Origin: Roseibacillus sp. | GTDB lineage: Bacteria; Verrucomicrobiota; Verrucomicrobiia; Verrucomicrobiales; Akkermansiaceae | Length of the DNA stretch: 64,000 nt | NCBI GenBank assembly: GCA_051251855.1 | Contig: JBPOGI010000001.1 | Location: 768,001 to 832,000 of the forward strand | Reading direction: 5' to 3' | Shown here: positions 57,739 through 62,101 of the stretch, one piece after another | Layout: each line of letters begins with the position of its first letter | Numbering within the stretch: position 1 is the stretch's first letter | Translations under genes and position numbers: made by a program | Notes under the pieces: generated by a model | The model's input: the letters and a program-made list of their open reading frames with translations, nothing else | Databases searched by the model: none | Told to the model about the DNA's origin: nothing

Positions 57739-60498
<2,760 letters not shown>

Positions 60499-60510
60499 AA
60501 GGTTGTTCGT

Positions 60511-60560
60511 TTTTTTGACGCAGAGTCGCAGAGTTCGCGGAGGTAGACGCAGAGATTTTT
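60511..60560. repeat. Inverted repeat arm (four CGCAGAG-like units between T tracts)
   Basis: TTTTTTG ACGCAGAG TCGCAGAG TTCGCGGAG GTAGACGCAGAG ATTTTT. Confidence 0.92.
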
Positions 60561-60946
60561 TAGGAAGAGGATTTGGAGTTGATGATACGAGTGACTCCGT
60601 CTTTGAGGAGAGAGTTGTTGAAGTTAATTAAGAGGCCAAGTGGCTTGTCTGCGAGAGTGAGGTAAGTGAGAAGTTGGGCCTTGTGGATTGGAAGAACTTT
60701 GTCGATGGCTTTAAGTTCAACTACTAGAGTGTCGTTGACAAGGATGTCGATACGGTAGGCGTTTTCAATTTCGAGTCCTTTGTAGCTAAGGGGTAATAAA
60801 ACTTCTGTTTCGCAGGAAAGGCCTTGAAGCTGGAGTTCATGAGCAAGGGCCTTCTGATAGCTTGCTTCCAAGAGTCCGGGTCCTAAGATTCTGTGGACCT
60901 CTATTGCTGCTCCAATCACAGCATGCGATAACTCATTTATTTCCAT
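60560..60946 (-). CDS. GxxExxY protein (PD-(D/E)XK nuclease-like)
   Basis: [38 protein letters not shown]. Confidence 0.93.
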
Positions 60947-60947
60947 T

Positions 60948-60997
60948 AAAAATCTCTGCGTTTCACTCTGAGTTCTCTGCGGCTCTGCGTCGAAAAA
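60948..60997. repeat. Inverted repeat arm, partner of 60511-60560
   Basis: Reverse complement reads TTTTTCG ACGCAGAG CCGCAGAG AACTCAGAG TGAAACGCAGAG ATTTTT; 41/50 identical with no gaps. Confidence 0.92.
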
Positions 60998-62101
60998 CTA
61001 CTTCTCTAAACTTGGAATCGCTCTCGGAGCTTTGCCTTCGACGGCCTTAGCGATGGCGGCGATGTGTTCGGGGGTGTTGCCGCAGCAGCCGCCTGCGAGG
61101 TTGAGGAGGCCGGCGTCGGCGAATTCGATCATGTATTCGGCCATGTGCTTGGGCTCGAGGTCGAATCCGGTAGGGGCGAGTGGGTTGGGGAGGCCGGCGT
61201 TGGGATAGCAACTGAGGTGGGTGGTGACGCACTTGTCGAGGTCCTGCAGGAAGGGCTTCATGAGGTCGGGACCGAGAGAACAGTTGAGACCGACGGCGAG
61301 AGGATTGGAGTGGGCGACGGCGTTCCAGAGGGCCTCGCCTTTTTGGGCTGAGATCATGGTCTCGCCTCCGCGACCGACGGCGGCGGAGATGATGATGGGG
61401 AGTCTGTTAGGGGAGTCGTCGAGGACTTCCTGGCAGGCAACGAGAGCGGCTTTGGCGTTGAGGGAATCGAAGATGGTTTCGACCATGAGGATGTCGACGC
61501 CGCCTTCGATGAGCGCTTTGATTTGGTGAGTGTAGGCGTCTTTGACTTGGTCGAAGGTGACGGCGCGGAAGGCGGGGTCGTTGGGATCGGCGAGGTTGGT
61601 GAGGGAGACGGTCATGGGGCCGATGGCTCCGGCGACGTAGCGAGCGCGGCCGGTTTCGTTGGCGACGCGGTCGGCTTCCACGCGGCAGAGTTTGGCAGAC
61701 TCCACATTGAGGCGCCAGACGAGGTCACTGATCTCGGCGTTGTTGACCACTTTTTCTTCGAAGAACTCGGGGTCTTTACGGGCTCCGTCGCCGGCTTTGC
61801 GGGGGTCTTCGACAAAGAACTCGGATTGGGAAAGGGTGGTTCCGGAGAAGGTGTTGGTTTCGACGATGTCGCTGCCGGCTTCGTAGAAGCGCTTGTGAAT
61901 ATCGGAAATGACGTCGGGGCGGGTGAGGGAGAGGATGTCGCCGTTGTTGAGGAGGTCTTCTTCGTTGCCTTTGAATTCCTCGCCGCGTGCGTCAGCTTCG
62001 GTGAGCTCGTAGCCGCGAATAGTGGTGCCCATAGCGCCGTCGAGGACGAGGATTCGTTCAGCGAGAGCGGCTTGGAGTTCGGCGGTTGGGTCCGGTTGCA
62101 T
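60998..62101 (-). CDS. metH: Methionine synthase N-terminal homocysteine-binding domain encoded as a separate gene
   Basis: LDGAMGT, ETNTF, ETIFD, GLNCSLG, PNAGLP, GGCCG. Confidence 0.95.
   Translation of the reverse strand: MQPDPTAELQAALAERILVLDGAMGTTIRGYELTEADARGEEFKGNEEDLLNNGDILSLTRPDVISDIHKRFYEAGSDIVETNTFSGTTLSQSEFFVEDPRKAGDGARKDPEFFEEKVVNNAEISDLVWRLNVESAKLCRVEADRVANETGRARYVAGAIGPMTVSLTNLADPNDPAFRAVTFDQVKDAYTHQIKALIEGGVDILMVETIFDSLNAKAALVACQEVLDDSPNRLPIIISAAVGRGGETMISAQKGEALWNAVAHSNPLAVGLNCSLGPDLMKPFLQDLDKCVTTHLSCYPNAGLPNPLAPTGFDLEPKHMAEYMIEFADAGLLNLAGGCCGNTPEHIAAIAKAVEGKAPRAIPSLEK

Follow-up and report, generated by a model that had tools for sequence, protein, structure and literature searches.

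We describe here a small nuclease gene, flanked by inverted repeat arms, that lies between the two halves of a split metH in a 64,000-nucleotide stretch of Roseibacillus sp. (assembly GCA_051251855.1, contig JBPOGI010000001.1, positions 768,001 to 832,000; hereafter the window). Three genes are arranged head to tail on the minus strand: metH-N (60998–62101, 367 aa; PF02574, E 8.9e-76), encoding the homocysteine S-methyltransferase module of a split cobalamin methionine synthase and ending at a TAG stop codon (60998–61000, from the open reading frame); a GxxExxY / PDDEXK_3 gene (60560–60946, 128 aa; PF13366, E 1.7e-41; TIGR04256, E 6e-42); and metH-C (57739–60498, 919 aa), encoding the pterin-binding, two B12-binding and AdoMet-activation modules. 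On the metH profile NF007024, metH-N matches up to position 341 and metH-C from 341 to 1231, the two halves abutting at 341. All MetH modules (homocysteine, pterin, B12 cap and B12, activation) are present, split across the two open reading frames (ORFs); the host gene is a classical metH with a single cut at the homocysteine/pterin linker, and relatives carry the same protein fused. It differs in this from the three-part methionine synthase MtgCDE of roseobacters, whose separate pterin, corrinoid and homocysteine proteins are of independent origin according to that report (PMC12478193). The insert between the halves is 487 bp long and has a G+C content of 0.45, compared with 0.55–0.63 for metH. 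In a consensus scan, the only promoter-like sites near the operon lie upstream of metH-N (62100–62147, minus strand), and no match was found inside the insert.

A repeat search identified a single strong inverted pair at this locus (60511–60560 and 60948–60997), with arms of 50 nt that are 387 nt apart and identical at 41 of 50 positions (82%). Letter-shuffled arms reached a mean of 12.6 matches and a maximum of 26 in 10,000 trials, and the local inverted-repeat score of 17 compares with a shuffle maximum of 10 (200 trials). Each arm consists of four CGCAGAG-like heptamers set between T/A runs. The mRNA-proximal (5′) arm (60948–60997), which reads TTTTTCGAC-GCAGAG... on the minus strand, carries them as CTCTGCG-type units of the plus strand at 60954, 60966, 60975 and 60983, the unit at 60966 reading CTCAGAG on the minus strand. 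This arm begins at 60997, directly after the metH-N stop codon, and ends at 60948, with the GxxExxY ATG at 60946. The mRNA-distal (3′) arm (60511–60560), which reads TTTTTTGAC-GCAGAG... on the plus strand, has its heptamers at 60519, 60527, 60536 (here CGCGGAG) and 60548; it overlaps the GxxExxY TAA (60560–60562) and runs to 60511, leaving 12 nt to the metH-C ATG (60498). A relative (G006) whose junction has no gene retains this 12-nt spacer between arm and ATG (60499–60510, minus strand, ACGAACAACCTT on the mRNA) and, with it, one arm heptamer. Among the nine mismatches between the arms, four are wobble-compatible on the antisense strand only and five are transversions. The arms, their units, their distances to the stop and start codons, the antisense-only wobbles and the higher AT content of the insert had all been reported in an initial annotation of this DNA, and the repeat search, shuffles, coordinates, arm alignment and G+C values bear them out. 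A gene bracketed in this way by inverted arrays, each with at least three copies of one 7-base word and here with four per arm, is referred to below as a cassette.

The protein scores well above the family cut-offs (141.7 bits for PF13366, cut-off 22; 142.7 bits for TIGR04256, cut-off 35). PF13366 is its only Pfam match, and no transposase domain was found in it with Pfam profiles. The nuclease looks intact because its catalytic residues and G-E-Y motif are near-invariant (G24, E27, Y30, D67 and K79 invariant and E77 at least 90% conserved in 70 sequences) and its AlphaFold2 model (predicted local distance difference test score 96.2) has a confident PD-(D/E)XK fold of alpha-beta-beta-beta-alpha-beta topology, with D67 and E77-x-K79 as its catalytic core. 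The structural neighbours are PD-(D/E)XK nucleases with Z scores of 6.7–8.0, including a restriction-endonuclease-like protein (8.0), BpuSI (7.9), Cas4 SSO0001 (7.8) and Hjc (6.7); Foldseek and VIA-align returned generic PD-(D/E)XK neighbours with no clear closest family, from which function beyond a nuclease fold is not inferable. The Protein Data Bank holds no solved structure related by sequence, PADLOC gave only weak Cas4-like core matches (E ~7e-4), and the nuclease had no match in PHROGs. The family is very large: genomes yielded at least 584 confirmed members from 603 candidate stretches, and metagenomes at least 580 from 601. In the accessible portions of the literature on GxxExxY, PDDEXK_3, PF13366 and TIGR04256, no treatment of repeats or of family biology was found, and no publication describing such cassettes.

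The cassette architecture recurs widely. All three GxxExxY genes of the host genome (G000, 4.96 Mb) have inverted arms: besides the gene at metH, one (C7:525684–526031) is enclosed by inverted CGCAGAG arms and has a 298-aa gene on one side and mutS on the other, and another (C7:268209–268553) lies between two co-directional genes with arms of CAC[T/A/G]AAG units. Nine genomes of the genus contain 18 full or near-full GxxExxY genes, from zero to four per genome and none in three genomes. Sixteen of these 18 genes are flanked by inverted arms of 21–68 nt with 3–4 repeated units, and the other two by arms of 13–14 nt; the arm word varies among the cassettes of the genus (CGCAGAG, CACGGAG, CGCAAAG, ACAGGAT and CGCAGAT). 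We also sampled 80 loci (78 testable) on one-genome-per-species contigs from Verrucomicrobiota, Acidobacteriota, Pseudomonadota, Bacteroidota, Planctomycetota, Cyanobacteriota, Chloroflexota, Methanothrix and others; the wide samples were gathered with a 7-row alignment and are biased to the 'LGPGLLE' clade. In this sample, 50 of the 78 loci have flanking inverted repeats that score at least 14 and beat all 20 shuffles, and some 10 further loci score 12–13 and are visibly heptamer arrays. The class consensus is a C-R-C-N-R-A-G heptamer in arrays of 3–4 units with a period of 8–9 nt, around a nuclease of ~125 aa.

Arms are also dispersed in the host genome away from the genes. An nhmmer profile of seven arms found 36 copies at E <= 1e-3, four of which belong to the two CGCAGAG cassettes and four to two gene-less inverted pairs (C10:60081–60240 and C8:198058–198255), and 28 are solo. 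The dispersed arms are intergenic, have no fixed orientation to neighbouring genes and are set among other short G/T-rich modules. Their abundance follows the gene: CGCAGAG doublets number 38, 30, 15, 79 and 9 in five gene-bearing genomes of the genus and 1 in the fragmentary gene-bearing G003, compared with 3, 3 and 0 in three gene-free genomes. Across 41 relatives, strict three-unit arrays occur in 13 of 31 gene-bearing genomes (most numerous in the host genome, with 22) and in 1 of 10 gene-free genomes, and the reversed control gave none in all 41. The arms are dispersed repeats, but these counts and the covariation described below tie them to GxxExxY genes. The initial annotation had proposed searches for arms at other GxxExxY genes and for solo arms, and considered that the arms might prove to be common repeats unrelated to the family; both kinds of arms exist, and the dispersed copies are not unrelated to the gene.

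The cassettes have a preferred setting in transcription units. Of 95 cassettes, 56 have a long ORF on each side that runs in the direction of the nuclease gene, and in 5 the two flanking long ORFs both run against it; this strong sense bias suggests a dependence on read-through transcription. The left arm begins at a median of 5 nt after the upstream stop codon (57 cassettes), lying within −5 to +15 nt in 33 of the 57. The 'exact fit' between the metH halves described in the initial annotation is correct as geometry, but it is not a special fit, because insertion into a short intra-operon spacer yields such a geometry.

Comparison of related genomes revealed turnover at this site. metH-N was found in 39 of 41 relatives, and the junction could be read in 30 loci, of which 13 are fused and 17 are split at the same linker. 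Ten of the split junctions contain a GxxExxY gene or remnant, six have only 33–72 nt, and in one (G008) metH-C is not adjacent. The cassettes at metH junctions all have matched arms, but their words differ. The metH-N of the window is sister to that of G003 (94% identity), where the junction shows three units of CGCAAAG and the start of the gene is only 53% identical, while G004, a member of another subclade, has a cassette with 80% identity to the window's, and its sister G005 carries a 51% cassette; cassette type disagrees with the host tree at this junction. In a tree of 94 GxxExxY proteins, six metH-junction proteins fall in three or four places, and the approximately unbiased (AU) test rejects their monophyly (p 0.0025, delta lnL 59.2), a p-value that is somewhat optimistic because the 26-row subset was picked after the 94-row tree was seen. 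The 'empty' junction of G006 aligns to the right end of the window's cassette and retains CTGCGTC, the outermost arm unit, and the 12-nt arm-to-ATG spacer; since these are still present, deletion has left a scar in this gap at least. In G009 and G023 the gaps, read by eye, also have one unit each. As to whether a cassette split metH in the first place, the tree of metH-N lacks a resolved backbone, and all split junctions are occupied or carry at most a possible scar. At the junction upstream of mutS, the window's genome has its second cassette, G002 has an unrelated cassette, and four genomes have 50–145 nt without arms. That a discrete unit comes and goes at gene junctions, as first proposed from the window alone, is supported by these empty, remnant-bearing or differently occupied junctions (six short gaps and ten with a GxxExxY gene or remnant among the 30 metH loci), and the gene is not fixed at its site in all relatives.

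Three loci have unusual structures. At the metH junction L014 (G012:C1:753326–757408), a complete cassette is followed by a second right arm, a second copy of ~19 nt of flank in which the metH-C start codons lie, and a GxxExxY 3′ end in decay (by eye), a pattern suggestive of two cassette events in succession or of a tandem duplication. At L005 (G003:C373), where a contig end leaves only 34 codons, a G002-like gene start is combined with an arm of CGCAAAG units like the G001/G005 type, and by eye the locus may be chimeric, its gene having been replaced within resident arms. L062 and L065 share 94.6% identity over the upstream flank and all of the cassette, and lose all similarity ~25 nt past the right arm, a rearrangement breakpoint next to the cassette end.

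This distribution could be read as a domesticated system of repeat plus caretaker, like the repetitive extragenic palindromic (REP) sequences and their REP-associated tyrosine transposases (RAYTs), in which the repeats are long-lived and mostly vertical with a host-level role and GxxExxY is a single-copy maintenance enzyme and no parasite. The cassette genes are indeed old and diverged with no recent bursts, the arms far outnumber the genes (36 versus 3) and track gene presence across relatives, and REPIN–RAYT systems are described as passed on largely by vertical descent (10.1101/2022.05.22.493013, PMC3337134). A caretaker would not be expected to be as patchy as this gene, with zero to four copies per genome and three of nine genomes of the genus lacking it, nor to be polyphyletic at one junction with a cassette type incongruent with the host tree, and the orientation of the arms to neighbouring genes is inconsistent. 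We consider this explanation unlikely.

The pattern of conservation within the arms bears on whether they act as words or as a helix. Statistics were collected over 73 distinct arm pairs, 67 of them in standard orientation. Mismatches between paired arms affect 130 of 2422 heptamer positions (5.4%) and 166 of 473 spacer positions (35%; Fisher p 1e-63). Heptamer positions 1, 3, 6 and 7 hardly vary and position 4 is unconstrained, whereas bases 2 and 5 are uniform across all 4–8 units of one cassette and differ between cassettes. Units follow each other with periods of 8 nt (114 cases), 9 nt (72) and 10 nt (20). In the 67 pairs, 82 of 209 differences are transversions, and the transitions comprise 77 that are antisense-compatible and 50 that allow sense-strand G-U pairing (binomial p 0.02). 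Because mismatch is concentrated in the spacers and no sense-strand wobble bias is seen, it is the heptamer words that are conserved and not a continuous helix. A cassette-specific reader of single words would fit these data; a continuous RNA or DNA helix does not require such a pattern. About six of the 73 cassettes (L041, L073, L084, L135, L137 and L139) have arms that are 'inside-out' relative to the gene, with the pyrimidine-rich reading upstream on the coding strand and what is normally the outer end (AACCAC...) turned inward.

These observations speak to the possibility that the insert is an RNA-level intervening sequence, in which the arms pair in the metH transcript and loop out the GxxExxY ORF, either bringing the metH-N stop next to the metH-C start for coupling, as the initial annotation had proposed, or forming an RNase III site that separates the messages. 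Minimum-free-energy folds of the two strands both contain the arm–arm stem, at −128.7 kcal/mol (z −3.1) for sense and −195.2 kcal/mol (z −6.4) for antisense, the cassette is co-oriented with the operon and lacks a promoter of its own, and the TIGR02436 (four-helix-bundle) genes of the host genome are also boxed by inverted unit arrays. But spacers that diverge 6.5 times faster than heptamers are unexpected if continuous pairing were selected, the transversions break pairing on either strand and the transitions favour the antisense strand, and a pure RNA helix leaves unexplained the uniform, cassette-specific bases 2 and 5 and the link to a protein residue described below. No Rfam match was obtained. 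The gene-less junctions are 33–72 nt long, and tight coupling is therefore no feature of the metH operon. An RNA-level role for the arms thus seems improbable, and the loop-out model gives way to the alternative voiced with it, that the arms are a protein-binding array, which we judge the better reading from the conservation of words and the residue–base link.

This link was found by scoring each column of the protein alignment for how well it predicts heptamer base 5 of the cassette. Residue 8 of the window's protein, which lies in helix alpha1, scores highest (0.75 bit); there, Asn, Arg or Lys goes with A and Glu, His, Gln, Gly, Ser or Thr with G in 54 of 57 cassettes, a training figure for which both the column and the residue classes were picked post hoc from related rows. 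In 19 disjoint pairs of nearest relatives that differ in base 5, 17 are concordant, none is discordant and two have the same residue class. For validation, the rule was fixed beforehand and applied to 80 fresh metagenome loci, 40 of which have arms of at least four units and 36 of these proteins less than 90% identical to the training proteins. Out of sample, the rule was right in 29 of 32 cases (Fisher p 6.6e-6), and residue 8 was again the top mutual-information column in the metagenome set alone. In the pooled counts, Glu goes with G in 26 of 26 cases, Asn with A in 15 of 15 and Lys with A in 4 of 4, while Arg has 9 A to 3 G and His 8 G to 1 A; the protein in the window carries His8, and its arms are of the CGCAGAG type. 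Another rule, in which Ile or Val at residue 121 goes with G at base 2, holds in 50 of 58 training and 25 of 34 validation cases (p 0.026) and is put forward only tentatively. Because a protein residue tracks a heptamer base, the nuclease most likely reads the arms, being the element's own enzyme and not, as the initial annotation had it, a 'passenger' of a 'transposase-free' unit. It is scarcely credible that a generic intergenic repeat flanks an unrelated small gene by coincidence: although the arms are a dispersed and mostly gene-less family, matched arms occur at 3/3 genes in the genome, 16/18 in the genus and 50/78 across phyla, and the covariation was validated out of sample.

Taken together, the 487-bp insert is probably a self-contained selfish cassette of a widespread class, composed of a nuclease gene between two inverted heptamer arrays. 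Cassettes of this class that are unrelated to one another have occupied, left and reoccupied the metH junction repeatedly. Architecture, distribution, site turnover, word-not-helix conservation and protein–heptamer covariation are observed; binding, cleavage and the route of mobility are inferred. The encoded protein would bind the heptamers of its own arms base-specifically, with alpha1 residue 8 reading base 5, and this binding would mark both ends of the element for nuclease-dependent copying or replacement. The gene-less scattered arms would be relics or non-autonomous copies bearing the same words. The cassette, without its own promoter and in sense orientation in the metH operon, is probably expressed by read-through, and it occupies the linker junction of a metH that is split in this lineage. 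It could move by repair copying that the nuclease provokes between sites with arms, by replacement within resident arms, or with the help of host recombination.

Several observations weigh against this interpretation. No mobility event was seen: contigs of four DNA runs from another study's metagenomes have the cassette in place (96–99% identity) and show no excision joint at the organism's own depth, although contigs cannot show rare excision. A low-depth contig (~82% identity) that skips 60484–61030 was considered as an excision and rejected as a relative's cassette-free junction. No near-identical cassettes at different loci were found among ~180 loci compared, and cassettes 1 and 2 of the host genome are old (58% amino-acid identity). 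No target-site duplication is readable, the intergenic DNA of the empty sites being too diverged and synteny being lost around the gene-less arm pair. With neither a transposase domain nor near-identical copies at different loci, the element does not qualify as a classical insertion sequence or transposon, and we know of no strand-transfer or joining chemistry for a PD-(D/E)XK nuclease alone. Only 8 of 72,556 plasmid records carry the element, all of them non-mobilizable, and no record of the phage collection does. Most arms (28 of 36) are solo and not paired, the host genome has solo arrays of word types that lack a resident gene (ACAGGAT, CGCAGAT and CGCAAAG), and the gene-free relative G025 has four three-unit arrays. 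As for the residue–base link, besides the post hoc choice of column and classes, only 1–3 independent pairs lie on well-supported branches, which gives no power; the residue 121 rule validated weakly; and the junction fragment of G003, with Ser8 and CGCAAAG arms, misfits the residue-8 rule (by eye).

A bolder version of the selfish-cassette reading, which is possible but which we hold with considerable doubt, is that these cassettes form a new class of autonomous mobile element whose sole protein is a ~125-aa PD-(D/E)XK nuclease reading 7-base words by a simple code in which a single residue reads each base: residue 8 of alpha1 reads base 5, and residue 121 possibly base 2. The nuclease would polymerise at 8–9-bp steps along each arm, and define and cut the element ends. 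Scattered words would serve as landing pads, and junctions such as that between metH-N and metH-C would therefore be colonised repeatedly.

Other features were observed around the locus and in the host genome. In the window, an 820-aa ORF (55267–57729, plus strand) adjoins metH-C, with an SGNH/sialate-esterase-like N-terminal start and a long Ser/Thr/Gly-rich C-terminal part. Both TIGR02436 four-helix-bundle genes of the host genome, which we take to belong to the '23S rRNA intervening-sequence protein' family, are boxed by inverted short-unit arrays, a parallel design around a different small protein. At L221 (G000:C7:392329–395649), the arms are 49 nt long and 90% identical, with CAAAAACT-like units (L221:1378–1426 / 1852–1900), and at L220 (G000:C9:133108–136431) they consist of CAGTTTG/CAGTTTT units (L220:1444–1469 / 1933–1969). 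The TTTTTGAG motifs beside many solo CGCAGAG arms may be solo arms of a TIGR02436-type cassette. Another dispersed repeat, GAACCACCGCGGGAGCGGGGCAC(G)GCAGGAGG, also lies beside solo arms (e.g., C7:9160–9200, C1:1781700–1781750 and C7:512130–512160), and recurrent modules precede (GGACGGGGTTGGA(T/C)TTTTT) or follow (GACGGACCGGTG..TTTTTGAG) the solo arm. The host's intergenic DNA is a mosaic of several short repeat families.

A gene travelling with arrays of the word that its protein seems to read would give the GxxExxY family, of unknown function, a testable role, in the form of a concrete one-residue, one-base prediction. Such cassettes would also account for one kind of repeat that is scattered through intergenic DNA in Verrucomicrobiota and other phyla, and they are a warning to annotators of small ORFs wedged into operons. 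An essential enzyme gene may evidently tolerate a resident parasite at a domain linker, and a compact, readable DNA-word recogniser could serve engineering.

Among known systems, REP/REPIN sequences with their RAYTs (REPtrons) of Proteobacteria are alike in having a small enzyme gene flanked by inverted repeat copies, a repeat that is also dispersed gene-less in intergenic DNA, an abundance that follows the gene, and few genes with many repeats, as described in two reports (PMC3337134, PMC3116915). The present enzyme, however, has a PD-(D/E)XK fold and is not a Y1 HUH (IS200/IS605-like) tyrosine transposase, and the arms are direct arrays of 3–4 heptamers instead of a short palindromic hairpin. 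Unlike REPIN doublets, the gene-less copies are mostly single arms (28/36) with only two gene-less inverted pairs, and the gene is patchy and polyphyletic at one site.

The ends of Tn7 (TnsB sites) and phage Mu contain several subterminal binding sites for the element's own protein, and TnsA of Tn7 is a PD-(D/E)XK nuclease that takes part in end cleavage. The cassettes share with them inverted ends, each made of several directly repeated words, which are protein-binding in Tn7 and Mu and putatively so here. They differ in having no DDE or other strand-transfer enzyme in their ~0.5 kb with one 125-aa protein, and neither target duplication nor multi-copy identical elements were seen.

Free-standing homing endonuclease genes, such as seg and mob of T-even phages, and the PD-(D/E)XK homing enzyme I-Ssp6803I offer another parallel: a small nuclease gene lies between conserved genes, shows presence/absence and type polymorphism at the same junction among relatives, and is co-transcribed with its hosts, probably so in the case of the cassettes. 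To our knowledge, homing endonuclease genes have neither inverted repeat arms nor dispersed gene-less repeats, and closely related cassette proteins occur here at different loci. The 23S rRNA intervening sequences of Leptospira, Coxiella and others, with a four-helix-bundle (TIGR02436, 'S23p') ORF, are likewise ~0.5-kb inserts with one small ORF and inverted-repeat bounds inside a transcription unit, but the host here is an mRNA junction instead of rRNA, the protein family is different, and the sequence statistics, which do not favour a selected helix, gave no evidence of RNA excision. The present analysis adds the turnover at the metH junction with its scar, the statistic that sets words against helix, the bias towards sense orientation and the rule linking residue to base.

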